In this document: one piece after another, positions 1,439-36,100 of the stretch | How positions within the stretch are numbered: position 1 is the first letter of the stretch | Layout of the letters: the number at the start of each line of letters is the position of its first letter | Assembly: GCF_024223415.1 (NCBI RefSeq) | Contig: NZ_CP100501.1 | Length of the DNA: 64,000 nt | Strand: one strand, 5' to 3' | DNA from: Escherichia coli | GTDB lineage: Bacteria > Pseudomonadota > Gammaproteobacteria > Enterobacterales > Enterobacteriaceae | Made by a program: the position numbers and the translations under genes | Notes under the pieces: model-generated | The model's database searches: none | Told to the model about the DNA's origin: nothing | The model's input: the letters and a program-made list of their open reading frames with translations, nothing else

Positions 1439-2031
1439 TGAAATCAGACGAAAAATACCAGGTTCCCGCGTGGATGCGACCTCTGTTGCCGTTGCTCTGC
1501 AACACCGGGGAGAACGATCCGGAAGAACTGCTGAATGATACAGAAACCACTGCCAGTGCGAATGTTGTCCGTTATGTGCTGATAGTTGCTGTGCGGTCGC
1601 AGGTTGATCTGCTGCAGCTTCTGTACAGGAAAGGGCTGTTGCGCACAGAGATACCAGGTGGCTTTTCACCGGAAGAAGCGCAGGAACTCCTGGATAATCT
1701 GGTGCGCAGCCATATCAGCAGGGCGCTGTCGGGTGAGCGAATGGCAGCCCGTGACAGGAATGCCGATCTGGCCTGGATTCGACAGCAACTGGTCGATGCC
1801 GCCTGGTTTGTCCGTGCCACACTGGAAGCGCATGGGATGAGCGTCGGAAATGAGAGTCCCCCTGCTCAGCCGGAGACAATGCCGGACATACAGACACGGG
1901 AACTGGTGATGTTGATCAAGCGACTGGCATCATCGCTGAAAGCGGTGAAACCGGACAGTTGTGTGGTGCGTGAAGCGCAGGACTGGCTGCGCGACAGAAA
2001 ACTTGTGAGCATCACGGATGTTCTTCGGTGA
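1435..2031 (+). CDS. hypothetical leading-region protein (198 aa)
   Basis: ATGATG overlap with psiA stop; same strand as leading-region operon; no recognisable domain. Confidence 0.5.
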   Translation: MMKSDEKYQVPAWMRPLLPLLCNTGENDPEELLNDTETTASANVVRYVLIVAVRSQVDLLQLLYRKGLLRTEIPGGFSPEEAQELLDNLVRSHISRALSGERMAARDRNADLAWIRQQLVDAAWFVRATLEAHGMSVGNESPPAQPETMPDIQTRELVMLIKRLASSLKAVKPDSCVVREAQDWLRDRKLVSITDVLR

Positions 2032-2495
2032 ACCAGTGGAGGTATGCTTGAGGAGCAGGGACATGCCGGTCATGATCGTTTCGTTCCAGGGGTGGTCTGG
2101 AGATCATGCGGCGTGTCCTCTGCACTCGCCGGAATAAGGACGTCGCCGCCGGCTCCGCTTTTACCCGGCCATGCGGGGCATGGCCTTGTGGGTTTTCAGC
2201 TCTGTGGCCTCAGCGTCGTGTGCGGGCTGTGCCGTGCCTCCATCGTAGCCGGGCTTCTGCGGGCGGGATGCAAGGTAAGATGAACCGCTGCGGTCACCCG
2301 GTCCCTCCTTCCCGTCTGCCGTGATTTTCCGGTCGTTCACCCGCTCAGATTTCGCGGTCTCACCCTCCAACTCCCGTCAGCCGTGCGCGTCGGGCTGCGG
2401 CTTTCCTTGCGCCCTTGCATCCCTGCAGGCCCGGCAAAGATGGAGGCACGGCACCGCCCGGTGTCGCAGAACATGTGACTATGGAGGATTCGGGA

Positions 2496-2996
2496 ATGTC
2501 TGTTGTTGCACCTGCTGTATACGTTGGAACCTGGCACAAATATAACTGCGGAAGCATCGCCGGCCGCTGGTTTGACCTGACCACGTTTGATGATGAACGC
2601 GATTTTTTCGCCGCCTGCCGTGCCCTTCACCAGGATGAAACCGATCCGGAACTGATGTTTCAGGATTATGAGGGTTTCCCGGGGAATATGGCCTCTGAAT
2701 GTCATATCAACTGGGCCTGGGTTGAAGGCTTCCGCCGGGCACGGGATGAAGGCTGCGAAGAGGCTTATCGTCTCTGGGTGGATGATACCGGTGAGACGGA
2801 TTTTGACAGCTTCCGCGATGCCTGGTGGGGCGAGGCTGACAGTGAGGAGGCTTTTGCGGTTGAGTTCGTCAGTGATACCGGCCTGCTGGCTGACGTGCCG
2901 GAGACGGTGGCGCTCTATTTTGACTATGAGGCGTATGCGCGGGATTTATTCCTGGACTCCTTCACCTTTATTGACGGTCATGTGTTCCGTCGGTGA
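2496..2996 (+). CDS. ardA: ArdA antirestriction protein (DNA mimic, anti type I R-M)
   Basis: 166 aa, MSVVAPAVYVGTWHKYNCGSIAGRWFDLTTFDDERDFFAACRALHQDE; acidic C-terminal half typical of ArdA; preceded by ~460 bp of GC-rich untranslated leader. Confidence 0.9.
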   Translation: MSVVAPAVYVGTWHKYNCGSIAGRWFDLTTFDDERDFFAACRALHQDETDPELMFQDYEGFPGNMASECHINWAWVEGFRRARDEGCEEAYRLWVDDTGETDFDSFRDAWWGEADSEEAFAVEFVSDTGLLADVPETVALYFDYEAYARDLFLDSFTFIDGHVFRR

Positions 2997-3348
2997 TTTA
3001 CTCCCCCGCTCCGGCGGGGGTATGGCCTGCCGGGCCGCCGGAAAACCCTGGCAGGCTTACGCCTGCCTGAAATACAGGAGGGCCGCGCCTGCGGCGCTGC
3101 CCTTCCTGCCCGTCATGGTGTGAGGCATTTTTCTGTTTTGTCGTTTCTGTTGTTCTGATGCCCGGAGGCGGGGACACCCTTCGGCTCCCGGCTGCCTGGC
3201 GGCATCCGGTCGTCGGCCCGACTCCGACAGGCAGCTGCTGGCGCACCCGCCAGTCTCCGCCGAACCCGCTGGCGCGGTTTCGGGCTGCCGCTACGGTCCG
3301 ATGTCTGAAAAACCAGGCCTGCAGCGACCGTTCCGGTCGCGCCGCCCC

Positions 3349-5521: not shown

Positions 5522-5728
5522 ATGACGATTGCAGAACGTCTTATACAGAAAGGTTTCGACGAGGGTTTTAAAGAAGGTTTTAAAGAAGGTTTTAAACAAG
5601 GAGCTCTTGAAGTGGCGCGGGAAATAGCCTGCCGGCTTCGGGATATAGGCTGGTCGCCGGAACGGATTCAGGAGGTCACGGGACTTTCCGGTGAAGAACT
5701 GAAAAAGCTGTTTCCTGATGAGCAGTAG
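5522..5728 (+). CDS. stand-alone small protein resembling the Rpn C-terminal domain (RpnS-like), 68 aa
   Basis: MTIAERLIQKG...ALEVAREIACRL...TGLSGEELKK aligns with the last ~49 aa of the upstream Rpn protein; contains three 12-bp tandem repeats encoding EGFK (5561-5596). Confidence 0.55.
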   Translation: MTIAERLIQKGFDEGFKEGFKEGFKQGALEVAREIACRLRDIGWSPERIQEVTGLSGEELKKLFPDEQ

Positions 5729-18962: not shown

Positions 18963-21236
18963 TTAATGTCCGGGCCACTCCTGTTGTTCAGTGACGTGAT
19001 GTGATATTTCTTCTTTAGCTGTAGCCTCATTCTGGAGGTTTGAAGTAAATATACGCTCCATTGTTTGTGCAACCGATGGTGGCATTTTTTCTTCCACACG
19101 TTCCTCTTCCGGACAACTCTGTGTGATATAGCATACGTGCCGTTCTTCCCGGGATGTGGTATTGATGATGTGAACTGCCTTGTTCCACAGGCTGTTTCCC
19201 CGGGCAGAGATATCTGTATCATATTGCGGAAGCAGATCCAGCGATGTTTGTGTTTCGTTAAGCTGCTTCTGGAAGGTATCGATGATACGGTAAGGCTCTG
19301 TACGGTTTTTACGACGTTTACGGGATGGTTTTGCTGTCAGTACACCAATAATGCTGCTGACATGCTCCGGTGTGGGAAAACGGCGCTGCACTGTCCTGGG
19401 GACGAGACGGCGGAGACGCTCCAGGCGGGGGGCTTCAACGGAAATATAGCGGTTGATGACCACCGGATCACTGTCGCAACTTTTCTCGCTGTCCGGAATA
19501 TACACAGAGGCTGACGGCACCACATCCCCCTGGAAAACGGTAAAGAACTCACCGGCATTCAGTCTGATCAAATCCTGCACGTCGATTTTGCTTTCCATCT
19601 GGATGGTGATCTGGTTACCGTCCACCCAGGACTCACCCATCACACCATCGTGGCGCTGCAGGCTGCCCATTCTGGCCCGAGCCTCTTCACCGGCGGCATT
19701 TTTCACCGTTCTTGCCGTTTTGTCGTCACTGACAATGCGTCCGGCGAATTTGGTGCCGGCGTTCTGCATCAGTGTGGCGGTGTTGGTGGCGGAGGTCTGC
19801 CCTTCAATTCGCTCCTGATCCTGCGCCATCATTATCAGGGAAAACTCCAGTGAACGTACCTGGGTGGCCTCCACAGCAATGCGGTCTGTGTAGTAGGCAC
19901 CGACTTCGTCAAGGATACAGATATAGGGGAAGCGGCCTTTGTATTTTTTTACTTCCAGGGTCTGTGCGTCTGTGCCTTCCAGGCGGTAGCCCAGGTCACG
20001 GGCGAGGATCATGCTCTGCTGGGTGATGAACATACGACCGAGTGCCGACGTGGTATGGGCTGATGTGTCCAGTGCGGGGATCATCACAATCAGAATTCGG
20101 TCGCTGTGGATACTGTCGCGAATATCGATGTCGCCGGCATCTGCCGCAAAGACGTCCCCGAAGGTTTCGGCAAAGGTTGTGAATGTTTCCGAGAACTGAC
20201 CGGAGAGATAAGCATGCTGTTTACGGGGCTCCTCAGTCCAGGCTGACGGCGTTCTCACCAGTGACATATCGAATCCCGGAACGTCCTGCAGGTAATTTCT
20301 CAGTGGTGCGATGGCTTCTTCCGGCCACTGGTCATCAAGCCCACGGCAATAGAGTTTTGCCATACCTTCCAGCGTCATATGCTCCCGTAACATCTGCAGG
20401 GACATGGTTTTTCTTTCCCGGACGCACCAGAATTTTGTGCCAAAGACCAGGGCTTTGTTCATGGCTATCGCCCGTGACTGCCATTCACCCCCCTGAACGT
20501 TCTGGGGAAGCATGGACTGCATGGTTTCGGCGGTGAAGGCTTCGGTGCTGAATGCGAACGGGTTCCAGGTGTTTGACTGTGGGCGGGATTTTTCGCCGCT
20601 CTGAATGATTTCACTGCGGGATTTTCCGCCGTTCATGAAGTTGATGACCTCGATATCATCCTCCCGGCCAAAACGTCGGGAGAGATACCAGATTGTCCTC
20701 GTGGTATCGTTCTGTGCCTTTCCGTCAACAAAGGTAAAGCCTCTTCCCCAGCAGAGAGGGTTGAGCAGCCAGGCAAAGGTGGTTTCTGTTTTACCGCCAC
20801 CGGTGGTGGAAAAAAATATGATATGCCGGGTGAGGTCATCCATGCTCAGCCAGAGCTCACGACCGATATCGTTGATACGGCGGTAACCGACATAAAAAAT
20901 CCCCCGTGCGGGGGATGTTTCATCTGCTTCATACTGAAACAGGGTGGGCCAGAAGCTGAAGAGGCTTCGCCTGACCTTTCTGTCCTGGGAGGGGTCATCA
21001 AGGCTGAGCGTCATGGGCATACGCAGGGGGCATCGCCAGCGTTGCAGCGTGAATATCACGGAGGTGACCAGGGTGAACAGCAGACAGACAGGAAGGGCCA
21101 GTGGCCATATCAGGGCCGTAATGATACTGCCGGCCAGACACAGACCAATGATGTTCAGGTTGTGCAGTGCATTCCACAGCGGGTTTCCCCAGGCCGTGCG
21201 GTGTATGAGGTCAGGATTAACGTGATGCTGGCTCAT
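18963..21236 (-). CDS. trbC: TrbC, type IV coupling protein (DotL/VirD4-like ATPase)
   Basis: 757 aa; N-terminal TM segments; Walker A STTGGGKTE; size and position as in R64 trbC. Confidence 0.85.
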   Translation of the reverse strand: MSQHHVNPDLIHRTAWGNPLWNALHNLNIIGLCLAGSIITALIWPLALPVCLLFTLVTSVIFTLQRWRCPLRMPMTLSLDDPSQDRKVRRSLFSFWPTLFQYEADETSPARGIFYVGYRRINDIGRELWLSMDDLTRHIIFFSTTGGGKTETTFAWLLNPLCWGRGFTFVDGKAQNDTTRTIWYLSRRFGREDDIEVINFMNGGKSRSEIIQSGEKSRPQSNTWNPFAFSTEAFTAETMQSMLPQNVQGGEWQSRAIAMNKALVFGTKFWCVRERKTMSLQMLREHMTLEGMAKLYCRGLDDQWPEEAIAPLRNYLQDVPGFDMSLVRTPSAWTEEPRKQHAYLSGQFSETFTTFAETFGDVFAADAGDIDIRDSIHSDRILIVMIPALDTSAHTTSALGRMFITQQSMILARDLGYRLEGTDAQTLEVKKYKGRFPYICILDEVGAYYTDRIAVEATQVRSLEFSLIMMAQDQERIEGQTSATNTATLMQNAGTKFAGRIVSDDKTARTVKNAAGEEARARMGSLQRHDGVMGESWVDGNQITIQMESKIDVQDLIRLNAGEFFTVFQGDVVPSASVYIPDSEKSCDSDPVVINRYISVEAPRLERLRRLVPRTVQRRFPTPEHVSSIIGVLTAKPSRKRRKNRTEPYRIIDTFQKQLNETQTSLDLLPQYDTDISARGNSLWNKAVHIINTTSREERHVCYITQSCPEEERVEEKMPPSVAQTMERIFTSNLQNEATAKEEISHHVTEQQEWPGH

Positions 21237-22335
21237 TGTGATTATCCTCGGTATCTGTGGCTTTCAGGAACAGGCTGACGGTAGTGGCGTCTTTCAGGAT
21301 GCCGGACGGCAGGTGCCAGCCGGTATCGGATAACACCCATGGGGTACCGCCAAAACCGAACTGGCGGAAAGCCTGGTTATTGACATCGATGGCAGCACGA
21401 GCAGCGGTCAGACACTTTTCATCCGGTGCAGCCGGTGCATCGCCGGTGGGTGCCATACCACCGTCTGCGGAATACAGCTGATGCCATCCGGTCGCCCGTT
21501 TTTGTGCGTCCGGTTCACACAGCAGTGGCGCAGTCCGGTTTGTGCTGGCCTCTCCGCCGATTACGGAGACCGGATAAATCACCACGCTGAATTCCCGGGC
21601 CAGTTGCTTAAGCGCGGGCTCCAGAAGACGGCAGTTGATGCATGCGGGGTCAAGGAAGGCGTAGAGTGTGCGTTCATGACCAGTGGAGAGATTAATGGTG
21701 AACATACCCCGGTCCGCGTTGCGTTTAAGTACAGTGGCCAGATTACGGCGGGCTTCAGCGACCAGAGTATTTTTGTCTGCTGTTATCGCCGGGGTAGCGG
21801 ATGTCTCCTGCATTTCCTGTGATGCCGGGTGAACGATTTCATTTTTCGTCTCTGACGGGGCTACTGACCGGACAATTTCCTTGTCGATGTGTAATGGTGC
21901 TGTTTCTGTTACGGATTCTGTGACAGGTACCCTGAGAGGGGAATCGCTGTCCGGTTTCAGTAAAATATATCCGGCTGTTACCGCTGTCAGAAGTGCCAGC
22001 ACTAATCCTGCACCGTATATCAGCCCTCTCATGAAGCTGGTTTTCCGGGCAGGAAGTTCTGCATATGCCGCGCTCAGACAGCTGTCAATCGCGGAGAGCA
22101 TTCTGCCGATGTGATGTCCGGGACGTTCAGTATCAACGGTATCAACAAGCAGTGTTTCGGTTATTTCACGAAAAGGGGTGCTGAAGGACAGGTGCATCAG
22201 CCTGTTATTACGGTTAATCAGTGCGCCCAGTTCTGTAACCGGCAGGATGGCAATAACCTCCTGACCACCGTCAGGGTACAGGGCGGTCAGGGACAGGTGT
22301 TTATTGTTCAGTGTTGCAGTGTAGCGGATGGTCAT
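21217..22335 (-). CDS. trbB: TrbB, thioredoxin-fold disulfide isomerase-like transfer protein
   Basis: 372 aa; CINC (CxxC) motif; TM segment; synteny. Confidence 0.75.
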   Translation of the reverse strand: MTIRYTATLNNKHLSLTALYPDGGQEVIAILPVTELGALINRNNRLMHLSFSTPFREITETLLVDTVDTERPGHHIGRMLSAIDSCLSAAYAELPARKTSFMRGLIYGAGLVLALLTAVTAGYILLKPDSDSPLRVPVTESVTETAPLHIDKEIVRSVAPSETKNEIVHPASQEMQETSATPAITADKNTLVAEARRNLATVLKRNADRGMFTINLSTGHERTLYAFLDPACINCRLLEPALKQLAREFSVVIYPVSVIGGEASTNRTAPLLCEPDAQKRATGWHQLYSADGGMAPTGDAPAAPDEKCLTAARAAIDVNNQAFRQFGFGGTPWVLSDTGWHLPSGILKDATTVSLFLKATDTEDNHNEPASR

Positions 22336-23666
22336 TGTGCTTTTTCCTTGTCGGCGGGATGCTGTTTTTCGGTGGTTTCGGTGGTTTCGGTGGTTTCGGT
22401 GGTTTCGGTGGTTTCGGTGGTTTCGGTGGTTTCGGTGGTTTCGGTGGTTTCACCAGTGTCAGTGTCTTCGTCGTTATCATGGCGGCGGGGTATCACGTCA
22501 TCCGTGAGTGACCAGCGGGTCCTGATCTGACGTTTACGATCGCGATCTGGCTGAGGTTCGTCCCATATCAGGCCCAGCCCCAGCATGTCCCGTCGAAGCC
22601 CTTCAATGGCCTCTTCCACACAGGGTTCCGGGCAGGGGAGGCCGAGACGGCTGGCTTCATTTTCTGCCCGGGCAACGGCCACCACGCCGGCCCCTTCGAT
22701 GAAGCCTTTTGTGGTGTTTGCCCGGTGAAGGGCATAGAAGAGCGTCCGGTCAACGCCCTTGAGCCACAGCCAGTTCGGAGGCGTCAGGCGCAAATCATGT
22801 GCGTAAAGCCAGACCAGACCGCTGCGAACGTAACGGTGCTGCCTGAGCCACTTTTGTGCGCCTTCTGTTTTGATGACCCGGATAAAGGCGTTTCTGGCCA
22901 GTGAATACACCGGCGTGCTGAAACGCCCCTGGTCCCGTTTACTTTTGAGCCTGCAGGAGAGATTGAGGTTGTTCATCAGGGCTACCGCTGCTTTCCGGTC
23001 ACCGAGGAAGAACTGCAGGCCAAAGATGGCAAAGAGCGCTTTTTCATGTGGGGCCATGTCTTTCCAGCTGGTCAGTGGTTGCCCCAGTTGCGCCATGAAG
23101 CACTGGCGTGTGGACGCAACATCGAGCTGCATGTTGCGGATAAGGTTGTTCTGCTCCACAAAGGCTTCGGGGGTTAGTGCGACACGGCGCTCGGGACGTT
23201 TTTGTCCGTGGAAGAGTCTGTTGTTGTCTCCGTCAGCCAGAACGGGGGCGATCGCCGGTGACAGAGCTGAAAAAATATGGGGCAGTGTGTGGATATTCAG
23301 TGGCCTGCGGGTAAAACGGGGCTGGGCCGGATGGTGAAACCACATCCACAGAAAGCCGAATGTCATGGGAAGCAGAATCAGCCAGAGGATCCCCACTGTC
23401 CGGGACATAACATCCAGCCACTGGCTGAAAGTGATGGTTGCCGCGTTGTTAGCAGTGATGGCCAGCAGGTTGTAACGGGGGACGGCAAAGTTGTGAAAGG
23501 GCCCCCAGTCAATCATGCCCCACAGTGTGTGCAGGATCAGGCAGGAGGCGAAGACGATTTCAGGTAAAAAGCGCCAGATGATAATCGCAAAGAGCAGGCA
23601 TATGGCACCGACGATATACCATATAGCCATTGGATCTTCGGCGGCAGACGTCTGTTGGTAAGACAC
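22332..23666 (-). CDS. trbA: TrbA (DotM-like inner-membrane transfer protein)
   Basis: 444 aa; N-terminal TM helices; synteny; C-terminal (ETT)9 repeat. Confidence 0.75.
   Translation of the reverse strand: MSYQQTSAAEDPMAIWYIVGAICLLFAIIIWRFLPEIVFASCLILHTLWGMIDWGPFHNFAVPRYNLLAITANNAATITFSQWLDVMSRTVGILWLILLPMTFGFLWMWFHHPAQPRFTRRPLNIHTLPHIFSALSPAIAPVLADGDNNRLFHGQKRPERRVALTPEAFVEQNNLIRNMQLDVASTRQCFMAQLGQPLTSWKDMAPHEKALFAIFGLQFFLGDRKAAVALMNNLNLSCRLKSKRDQGRFSTPVYSLARNAFIRVIKTEGAQKWLRQHRYVRSGLVWLYAHDLRLTPPNWLWLKGVDRTLFYALHRANTTKGFIEGAGVVAVARAENEASRLGLPCPEPCVEEAIEGLRRDMLGLGLIWDEPQPDRDRKRQIRTRWSLTDDVIPRRHDNDEDTDTGETTETTETTETTETTETTETTETTETTEKQHPADKEKAQ
22371..22451 (-). repeat. 9 x 9-bp perfect tandem repeat (ggtggtttc) inside trbA, encoding (ETT)9
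   Basis: Direct reading of sequence; in-frame in trbA C-terminus. Confidence 0.9.
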
Positions 23667-23976
23667 GGGGATTCCTCCATAGATGAATGGATAAATTTCG
23701 GGATTAAGTCGGGTGGCATGAATGCGAATCAGCGCCGGTAATAACCGGACAGGAATGAATTCAACAGGACATTTTTACAGAGAAGAGCGAACGGCAGAAG
23801 GTGGTGGGAGACAGGTACAAAAAAACCGACTGGTGAGGCCGGTTTTTTTGCGATTCCGGGGTGGAGTTGGTGGCTCTGACCGGAGGAAGTCTCTTTTCAG
23901 CTAACAATGAGAGAGCTGTTGTGACAGGCAATGTAAGAGTAAGCAGCAGTGATTTCCTCCATTGACGGAGAAACGG

Positions 23977-33187: not shown

Positions 33188-36100
33188 CAGAGGTGATATC
33201 CCTGCTTACGGATGAGTTCCGCAGCCAGATCATGGATGACGTTTTCACTGTCATGTGTACGGGCGCGGTGTTCTATCAGTGAGGTGGCTGAACCACGGGG
33301 AAAGTTTTCTGCCAGGATCTGGCGTGCCCGCAGTGACCCGAGCTCCTGCGTCAGCGCACGTCTCAGGGCGCTGTCTTTGGGTGAGGAATTCAGAGCCCAC
33401 AGCTCCAGTGGACCGAGAGTGAATTTCAGGATCCGGGCCAGCGTACCGTTTTTTACACGGAACACAGCCAGTACCGGGACACCGCTGCCATCCGGTGCAG
33501 CCCCTTCCGGCATTTTCAGAAAGCGCCGCAGGGTGACTTCAGGGACACCAAAATTATCCCGCAGAAACGGAATTTCGTCAGGGCGGTAACGCAGCAACCA
33601 GAGGGTGTTGGCGGATTTGAGAACTGCCGGTGGATAGTCCTGCAGTAGCTGGGTGCTCAGCACTGTGCGTATCCCGAACTTACGCTGCTCCAGCTCCTGG
33701 GTGTCCAGGGCTTCCCAGATGAAGTTGATCCCTTTTGCATTGTGCAGTTCGTCATAGACTTTGGTCTTGACCTCCTGATCAAGCTGTTCAATGCGGCGGA
33801 AAATCACCTCATGGTAGCGTGGGTCGAGATTTTTCCGTATTTCCTCCTGATACTGCGGCAGGACAAAATCCCCGCCGGCGATTTGTCCTGCCAGCAGGTA
33901 CATGATGCCGGTGCGCAGACGCCCGGCAGGTGTCTTGTCACCGGCCACATTGTTCAGATCAACGGCCACAACGCGGGTGTCGGGGCTGAGCATAAACCGG
34001 GTACAGCCGGACATCATCGGGTAGTCACTGTGTCCCTGATCGAGGGCACGGCGGATGTAGTCCAGTAACAATTCTGCTGAGTTATCGCGCTGAACTGTGC
34101 CGAACACATCCCGGATGGATGGCTGTCCCAGCAGGGCGGACATTTCAGCCAGCAGGGGCATGGCCTGGTAGTGTGCCCGCTGGGCTGCGGGGATATTGCC
34201 AGCCATATGCAGCATGTCCCTGATTTCAAACCAGGTGGCAGCATTCCACCATCCAGAGTCATGTTGTTCTGCGATGCCACTCTCTTCCAGGGCGAGATCC
34301 ACAAGGGGCTCTGTTCCTGCACGGTACAGTCTGGGGTTGTTTTCGCCATACTCCCTGAAGGCCAGATCCACCAGGTTGCTTATGATTTGCCGGGTGTCAC
34401 CGGGATTACAGGGCTGACCGGTGCCGGTATCCACGCACAGTGCGCAGAGTACAGATACCATGAAGTTCTTTTCCGGGGTGGCGGGTTTTTTAGCACCGTA
34501 CATCACATCAAACAGGTTACGGGTGTGTTCCGGATCATTGCTCAGAATGATCCCCACGGCTTCGTCCTTTCTCTGCTCCGGCAGGCTGTCACGGATAAGC
34601 TGTACCAGTCCCTGTGCACTGAATCCCTTGTCGATATAGGCAATGAAAGGCAGGTTCTTCTGGGCTGAGGCTATCTGGATCTCCGACAGTGCGTTGATGA
34701 GTACCGATTTGCCCAGACCGGGTGCGCCGGGCGTCAGTTCCGTGTGCTTGTTCTGTTGTGACGATGCCAGTGCGACCTCCCATGCAGAGCCGTCCTCGGT
34801 GTGCATCATCAGATTTCCCTGTCCCCGCCAGACAGAGCCTGCCCTGTTCAGGGGAAACAGGGAAAGGGCGTGTGAAAGGGGCGGGTAAAGGGGGATCGGG
34901 CCGGAGCTGTGGGAGGCTGCCAGAACCGTGTTCACCCAGGCACGTCTCGGATCACCGAAGGTGGTGGTGGTGCCGCATACCCCCCAGCCTTCCAGCGCAG
35001 ATTTCAGGAGAGCCTGGTTACGGGTACAGACTTCCCGGCTGTTTCCCCATGTGGTGGCAACAATGGTCATGATACAGACCGGATCATGTTTGTTGATGTC
35101 ATTCAGCATCATCACCGAGTCATACATGGGCCGGAGAGGGGAAATAAAGCTGCTGTAGGTTAGCAGGGTTTTCTTGACCCCAAGCGCCTTCATGCCGCCG
35201 GGTATCAGATCCATCCGGATACGCCAGGGGATTGCGCGGGGCACATCCCTGACCAGCTGGTTGAATGTCCGCAGATTCTGGGGTGGCAGGGTAATGGCGA
35301 CCATACCGTGCCAGAGGTCACCGGCCTTTATCAGGCTGCCGTGTGTTTCAGGCTGTGTGGTGAATAACTGCAGATTCAGCGACGGTGCGTGGAATACAGA
35401 GGTATCCTCGCCCTGTCGCCAGCCGGCAGGACGGGCATCTTCAGGCAGATGAGGCTGCCATACTGCAGGTGTGCTGTTGCGCTCCAGTTGACGGCGGATT
35501 TCCCGTCCCACTTCATGAATATCCATCAGGCGAACCAGCAGACCATCAGAATCATGTGTCAGGGCCTGCTCCAGCGTGTCCAGAAAGGCGTCATGCCGTA
35601 TTTTGAGTGCGGAAAGTGTCCAGCGCCATGGATCCTGCGCAAATCGGGCTGGCGGAGCGTGTTCAGCGAGTTTCCTGATACGGGTCTGGTGGTCCTTGCG
35701 ATCGGTCCGGCTCAGCAGTTCTTCAGAGCTCCAGACGGTCAGCCAGCAGCGTTCCCGGACAAGCCAGGGGGTGAGCGTGGTGACTTTTTCATCCAGAACG
35801 TCCTGAAGCAGGATCCCCGTACGTGCGATGGATTTTCGCTGGGGTAAGAGCATGGCTTCGATTTCATCCCTTCCACGCTCCGGATCGCGTTCGAAAACAA
35901 AACTGATTTTGTGACCGGTGTTTTTATAGGCAGTGTTCATTCGCTCTGCCAGCGCTGTAATCAGTGATTCCAGTGTGCCGGGGGCTGTCAGGTCCGGGTT
36001 TTCATCCATTTCTTTCAGGGCACCGCTGATTTCAAAGACGGAAAGGTAATACCCCTGTTTTGTGGTGGCAATGTAGGGGGCTTTCAGCCAGGGGCGGCGT

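Follow-up and report, generated by a model that had tools for sequence, protein, structure and literature searches.

Does a perfect tandem repeat in the coding end of a conjugal transfer gene vary in copy number between plasmids, and what would such variation do to the protein? The question is raised by trbA in the 64-kb stretch of Escherichia coli DNA analysed here (the window), where a first-pass annotation had described a perfect in-frame repeat of nine 9-bp units encoding (ETT)9 at 22371-22451, and had predicted that its copy number was likely to vary by slipped-strand mispairing, between plasmids or within populations. We therefore asked how well the array itself stands, where in TrbA it falls, how it differs among related plasmids, and which explanation of its variation is best borne out.

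A single strong tandem repeat at the end of trbA

22371-22451, minus strand: perfect tandem array, 9 x GAAACCACC, encoding (ETT)9 (direct sequence reading and Tandem Repeats Finder)

The description of the array was confirmed by direct reading and by Tandem Repeats Finder (TRF). On the minus strand, GAAACCACC occurs nine times from 22451 to 22371, in frame with the 444-aa trbA ORF. TRF reported a single array at 22367-22451 (period 9, 9.4 copies, 100% matches, 0% indels, score 170) with TTTCGGTGG as the plus-strand repeat unit, and the four bases of its span that lie beyond the nine units are the GAAA of adjoining codons. The ETT run makes up TrbA residues 406-432, and the C-terminus here reads ...RRHDNDEDTDTG(ETT)9EKQHPADKEKAQ*, with DTDTG directly before (ETT)9. 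The array cannot have arisen by chance in 64 kb, because 76 consecutive bases each match the base 9 upstream. It is the sole strong tandem repeat within the window, the runner-up having a TRF score of 69. Three more short imperfect tandem repeats were found, at 5550-5601, 12452-12477 and 34862-34893 (periods 12/24, 10 and 12, respectively; TRF scores 43-69).

Reading frames across the array that encode KPP, FGG, VVS and RWF were set aside as short mechanical ORFs, since homology on both sides of the array backs the trbA frame only. Directly beside the array, the antisense strand has a weak terminator-like hairpin consisting of CGGCGGGATGCTG and a T-run (window 22352-22364, plus strand); it is probably a chance occurrence, because 5 such sites are present in the region versus 2.1 +/- 1.7 expected.

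TrbA as a DotM-like subunit of the coupling complex

22332-23666, minus strand: trbA CDS, 444 aa, GTG start, stop included (ORF; Pfam DotM_C; PDB DotM match over residues 4-358; length equal to the RefSeq annotation of a 9-copy relative)
21217-22335, minus strand: trbB, DsbC-family, 372 aa (ORF and the annotation of relatives)
18963-21236, minus strand: trbC, 757 aa, DotL/VirD4-like coupling ATPase of the I-type system (ORF and NCBIfam TrbC_conju)
22345-22349, minus strand: likely trbB Shine-Dalgarno sequence AAGGA, inside the last trbA codons and 21 nt downstream of the array (read from the sequence)

The earlier assignment of the gene as trbA was borne out by Pfam, by the annotation of relatives and by gene order. 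Pfam DotM_C (PF23127) covers TrbA residues 185-358 (E = 2.8e-47), and the records of close relatives name the gene TrbA, except for that of the 12-copy allele ('hypothetical protein'). Downstream lie the DsbC-family trbB, whose ATG overlaps the trbA stop as ATGA at 22332-22335, and then trbC, two genes from trbA and scoring 1008 bits against a cut-off of 800 for NCBIfam TrbC_conju. The transfer region of relatives also holds DotA/TraY, TraW, TraX and ExcA. Legionella DotM/IcmP chains in the PDB (6sz9_B, 6ex*) align to TrbA residues 4-358 with E about 1e-7, and similarity falls below equivalog level, at 70.7 bits against the curated cut-off of 230 for NCBIfam DotM_IcmP_IVB (NF033890). By these matches TrbA belongs to the DotM/IcmP family, as a subunit of the I-type (type IVB) coupling complex that is a distant relative and not an equivalog.

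The function of TrbA is given as unknown in the DotM structure paper (PMC5802825). Its description as an essential transfer gene in the first-pass annotation agrees with the literature: knock-out of trbA abolishes conjugation in the related plasmids pMS7163B (PMC10286972) and pCT (PMC6868128).

Upstream of trbA, Rfam AgrB (RF02891) was matched at window 23817-23904 on the minus strand (51.8 bits; gathering score 40). Relatives annotate the DinQ-like type I toxin dqlB at this site, that is, a toxin/antisense-RNA module within the transfer region.

The array falls in a predicted disordered, acidic tail

22593-23114, minus strand: DotM_C cytoplasmic domain, residues 185-358 (Pfam, PDB alignment, AlphaFold2)
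22491-22574, minus strand: linear segment GLIWDEPQPDRDRKRQIRTRWSLTDDV, conserved throughout the family; residues 365-392, after the folded domain and before the variable tail (family alignment)
22335-22538, minus strand: predicted disordered C-terminal tail, residues 377-444, pLDDT below 50 (AlphaFold2)

AlphaFold2, run on TrbA with a 32-sequence alignment, predicted a protein folded to about residue 364 and gave residues 377-444 a pLDDT below 50. The alignment to DotM in the PDB stops at residue 358, before the array. The folded cytoplasmic region (residues 151-364) carries a net charge of +12 and has a pI of 10. The distal tail (residues 393-444) has a net charge of -12 at 9 copies, which would be -4 at 1 copy and -19 at 16 copies. 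Taken together, the model and the alignments place the array beyond the folded domain, in what is predicted to be a lineage-specific, disordered and acidic C-terminal tail.

The same part of the protein was compared among family members. After a conserved GLIWDEPQPDRDRKRRIRTNWSLT(D/E)D they have a short, variable and acidic end, which closes with a terminal Phe in R64-type and most other homologues (401-406 aa) and is replaced in the B/O/K/Z group by DNDEDTDTG(ETT)nEKQHPADKEKAQ. Two other homologues (P0004 and P0047) carry unrelated low-complexity inserts at the array position.

Two further features of this region were observed. The segment GLIWDEPQPDRDRKRQIRTRWSLTDDV is near-invariant across the family despite its position after the domain and its partly low model confidence, and it looks like a conserved linear binding motif, albeit a putative one. 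Outside B/O/K/Z, TrbA homologues mostly end in acidic residues and a terminal Phe (GDDDSPF, EDDEQPF, ATDHEF), endings that resemble both the C-terminal tip of SSB (DDDIPF) and the tail by which F TraD binds TraM, which is likewise acidic and Phe-terminated. The TrbA of the window (22335-22490) has lost this Phe-terminated ending and reads through into the trbB overlap.

Copy number varies among relatives in whole units

A 651-bp query around the array matched 470 plasmids in PLSDB; of 5,426 complete E. coli genomes, 380 had matches, in 392 records. Copies were counted in systematic spread samples of 60 of the 470 plasmids and 60 of the 392 E. coli records; most copy numbers were inferred from BLAST match spans, whilst 23 loci were read base by base. 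The counts, as copies:records, were as follows.

PLSDB sample (60): 1:7, 2:6, 3:2, 4:7, 5:6, 6:10, 7:6, 8:6, 9:2, 10:2, 11:2, 12:2, 13:2
Complete E. coli genome sample (60): 1:8, 2:14, 3:2, 4:7, 5:6, 6:5, 7:5, 8:5, 9:3, 10:1, 11:1, 12:1, 13:2

Among the matches listed, the difference from 651 is a multiple of 9 for every span except that of H122. A locus of each size class was read: perfect GAAACCACC units number 13, 12, 11, 10, 9, 8, 7, 6, 5, 4, 2 or 1, their flanks are identical, and the array of the 3-copy size class is imperfect. A 16-copy allele is present in pZPK-H21, and the pCT allele has 5 copies. Every allele read keeps the frame and the common stop codon. Polymorphism between plasmids, as predicted from the window alone, is thus found as whole-unit alleles of 1-13 and 16 copies with conserved flanks, that of 3 copies being imperfect.

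Several records stand out in other respects. The exceptional span (H122; locus L016, NZ_JBEWXE020000002.1, 1733-3286) contains a 219-bp tandem duplication over the trbA tail, the 9-copy array and the first trbB codons, giving two 9-copy arrays and a pseudogene fragment, and is either real or an assembly error. A 1-copy trbA-trbB junction (H176) lies on the E. coli chromosome NZ_LR890270.1 (3514522-3515100), and an integrated I-complex transfer region is therefore implied. In the PLSDB/RefSeq records fetched, the product name follows copy number: alleles of up to 9 copies are named 'IncI1-type conjugal transfer protein TrbA', those of 10, 11, 13 and 16 copies 'conjugal transfer protein TrbA', and those of 12 copies 'hypothetical protein'. 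The repeat may push TrbA across naming thresholds.

The array changes faster than the plasmid backbone

The best 54 matches to a 3-kb query (at least 98.2% identity, with the array gap counted as mismatch) include every copy number from 4 to 13, as well as 16. Three IncK2 blaCMY-2 plasmids were then compared over 42,920 flanking bases.

MT707656: 12 copies; 0 mismatches versus MT725450
MT725450: 7 copies; 0 mismatches versus MT707656
CP141241: 11 copies; 2 mismatches versus each of MT707656 and MT725450

The whole-plasmid lengths of MT707656 and MT725450 differ by exactly 45 bp, and two more plasmid pairs, one copy apart, differ by exactly 9 bp in total (120,714 versus 120,705 bp, and 85,947 versus 85,938 bp). 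The array changes faster than the backbone does by point substitution.

One copy number is nevertheless common to many independent isolates of a lineage, with at least 18 records of 12 copies and at least 10 of 6. Modal numbers are characteristic of lineages: many IncK2 blaCMY-2 plasmids have 12, for instance, and a Shigella/E. coli group has 6. Because independent isolates of one lineage share a copy number, the array is heritable over outbreak time-scales, and these lineage-specific modal numbers mean that it is stable enough for inheritance through outbreaks.

The plasmid in the window (12000-36000) has no PLSDB entry of its own. Its best match is NZ_CP127318.1, from a chicken E. coli (98.1% over 24 kb); against the IncK2 blaCMY-2 lineage, other regions reach only 86-98% identity, which makes the backbone a mosaic within the B/O/K/Z group.

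The array is confined to the B/O/K/Z branch; a second allele lineage

MOB-suite types of the array-bearing plasmids are IncK2/Z, IncI1/B/O or IncI-gamma/K1, which is the B/O/K/Z side of the I-complex. No array was found in IncI1 proper (R64 type; about 1,430 plasmids matching P0003 at at least 95% identity), where TrbA is a constant 402 aa: the span was exactly 1206 nt in 15 of 16 sampled rows, the sixteenth being a 3-piece match of 1210 nt. The R64-type gene ends DNEF*, with an 18-nt gap before trbB. The other Enterobacterales TrbA homologues in the family alignment are likewise without the array. By these comparisons, the array belongs to the B/O/K/Z branch and is not shared by IncI plasmids at large. 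The comparison of repeat number across IncI plasmids that the first-pass annotation had proposed gave a divided answer, with whole-unit variation in the B/O/K/Z branch and none in IncI1 proper.

A second lineage, with a more divergent trbA and found mostly on large STEC-type plasmids, carries GAAACCACC, then copies of GAAACCACT, and then the ending ETRHPADKEKAQ. The unit GAAACCACT is synonymous to GAAACCACC and also encodes ETT. By length, alleles of this lineage have 2, 3, 4 or 8 ETT-type units, that of 8 units with one ACC-to-ATC (Thr-to-Ile) interruption, and one plasmid holds a likely proto-state, ETTETR. The second lineage expanded its GAAACCACT array independently. Differences between array units are almost all synonymous; together with the parallel expansion of ETT, this could be a sign of selection, not drift, acting towards a tail that is acidic and Thr-rich. 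In the six records listed, the imperfect 3-unit allele does not vary, which is what stabilisation of a repeat by interruptions would predict.

A coding repeat that is tolerated and probably near neutral

We consider it probable that the array is a coding variable-number tandem repeat (VNTR), driven by slippage and near neutral, and not a fixed functional element; the polymorphism of length and charge that it gives the TrbA tail is tolerated. Whole 9-bp (three-codon) units are gained or lost, most likely by replication slippage or by misaligned recombination between plasmid copies, and each step adds or removes one Glu-Thr-Thr tripeptide; we infer slipped-strand mispairing or misaligned recombination from the sequences of the alleles, and on the same pattern copy number may also vary within one population. 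Because the unit is a multiple of three, no such step alters the frame, the trbA stop or the overlapping trbB start. What results is variation in the length and charge of a tail predicted to be disordered and acidic.

Most of this copy-number variation is probably neutral or weakly modulating, because conjugative plasmids in circulation carry anything from 1 to 16 copies; pCT, which has 5, has been described as highly conjugative (PMC6868128). The array is also dispensable for the core function of TrbA, because about 1,430 R64-type plasmids and the other Enterobacterales homologues are without it.

On/off phase variation was considered separately and is ruled out: the unit is 9 bp, all alleles are in frame with one stop codon, and the array contains no promoter-like site.

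Alternative readings of the variation

Adaptive tuning, with the array as a rheostat, seems unlikely. Here the acidic ETT tail would act in cis or in trans on the basic DotM-like surface or on a partner (TrbC, the relaxosome or the Sog primase). Substrate recruitment or the rate of transfer would depend on the length and charge of the tail, and changes in the mutable array would let plasmids adjust transfer to what it costs them. The proposal draws on charge complementarity between the folded domain (+12, pI 10) and the distal tail (-4 at 1 copy to -19 at 16 copies), and on Legionella DotM, whose basic Arg patches bind acidic Glu-rich peptides (PMC5802825). The best conserved residue of these patches, DotM R314, apparently corresponds by alignment reading to TrbA R307, which is invariant in the family alignment. 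The parallel expansion of two unit variants, both encoding ETT, points the same way, and conjugation has a large fitness cost in pCT (PMC6868128), hence tuning could matter. However, AlphaFold2 docked the tail nowhere (pLDDT 27-41), circulating conjugative plasmids carry copy numbers from 1 to 16, and IncI1 and all other homologues are without the array. Full-text literature searches found no phenotype tied to copy number.

A stronger form of the proposal, to which we give somewhat less credence still, posits that the ETT array is a selected evolvability device. The tail would be an acidic pseudo-substrate, with its length setting the occupancy of the basic, Glu-rich-peptide-binding surface of the TrbA domain or of a partner. 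Were this so, engagement of the relaxosome and of protein substrates by the coupling complex would be tuned by tail length, and slippage would give each lineage a heritable, quickly adjustable setting of transfer rate versus cost.

An effect at the level of RNA or DNA is highly improbable. The A/C-rich array might affect how trbB is translated, by way of mRNA structure, a ribosome standby site or the coupling distance, or it might itself be a promoter or protein-binding site. The geometry invites the idea, since the array ends 33 nt before the trbB ATG that overlaps the trbA stop, and its RNA has hardly any structure, each added copy contributing about -0.15 kcal/mol. Against this, neither of two quantities predicted for the trbB ribosome-binding window (-20 to +15) depends on copy number from 0 to 20 copies: its opening energy is 8.8-9.75 kcal/mol and its mean unpaired probability 0.55. 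Ribosomes translating trbA also traverse the array at any length. The flatness of both quantities led us to reject an RNA-structure effect on trbB within thermodynamic prediction. Iteron-type binding sites are longer than 9-bp units. A promoter, terminator or known RNA in the array was likewise rejected, as the array has no promoter-like site and no Rfam match.

Assembly artefact, by which public copy numbers would be collapsed or expanded repeats, is scarcely credible and was rejected: repeats can be mis-assembled, L016 has its suspicious 219-bp duplication including the array, and several database TrbA proteins are 'partial' (P0002 stops at the array), but the differences are exact multiples of 9 with perfect flanks, the arrays of 9-144 bp are below typical short-read length, independent isolates of one lineage repeatedly share a number (at least 18 records with 12, at least 10 with 6), and many laboratories contributed the records.

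Comparison with known systems

Our full-text literature search (gene plus repeat, the repeat DNA on both strands, the peptide, and the near-isogenic accessions) found no published description of the trbA array. Coding VNTRs, or in-frame simple-sequence repeats, in bacterial genes are loci used for MLVA typing. The trbA array shares with them identical head-to-tail units, whole-unit steps, change that is rapid versus point substitution, and interruptions that stabilise; it differs in lying in an essential plasmid transfer gene, not in a surface protein or promoter, and in having a 9-bp unit that cannot switch the gene off.

By analogy only, the closest counterpart is the QQP (Gln-Gln-Pro) repeat of F-like TraD. 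There, too, a tripeptide is repeated to different lengths in related plasmids, and the repeat lies in the unstructured C-terminal extension of a conjugative coupling component; the QQP region has 5 residues in TraD of F and 23 in TraD of R1 (PMC3245843). The two proteins are not homologous, however: TraD is itself the VirD4-type ATPase in F-type systems, and TrbA is the DotM-like partner of the ATPase in an I-type (IVB) system. The QQP residues are neutral (Q/P) and those of TrbA acidic (E/T), and in TraD a mapped TraM-binding tail comes after the repeat. Legionella DotM/IcmP is homologous to TrbA residues 4-358, and TrbA too is encoded beside a DotL-like ATPase, but identity is low and DotM has only ~18 residues after the aligned domain, with no repeat, versus the 86-residue extension of TrbA here.

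Meaning of the variation

The array is a fast-changing locus in plasmids of clinical and agricultural importance, those of the IncK2 and B/O/K/Z group that carry blaCMY-2 and blaCTX-M in isolates from poultry, food, Shigella and humans. As a marker it could be used to trace, cheaply and at high resolution, plasmids that are identical in other respects, and it can confound plasmid comparisons based on SNPs or length. It also disturbs automatic annotation, as with the 12-copy allele that is a 'hypothetical protein' in the RefSeq records fetched. It is otherwise an ordinary coding VNTR. Alleles of 1-16 copies nevertheless form a natural series in the tail of the transfer-essential TrbA, which makes a role of the tail directly testable. 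If the variation is neutral, the array would simply illustrate well how an essential gene can tolerate an in-frame VNTR.
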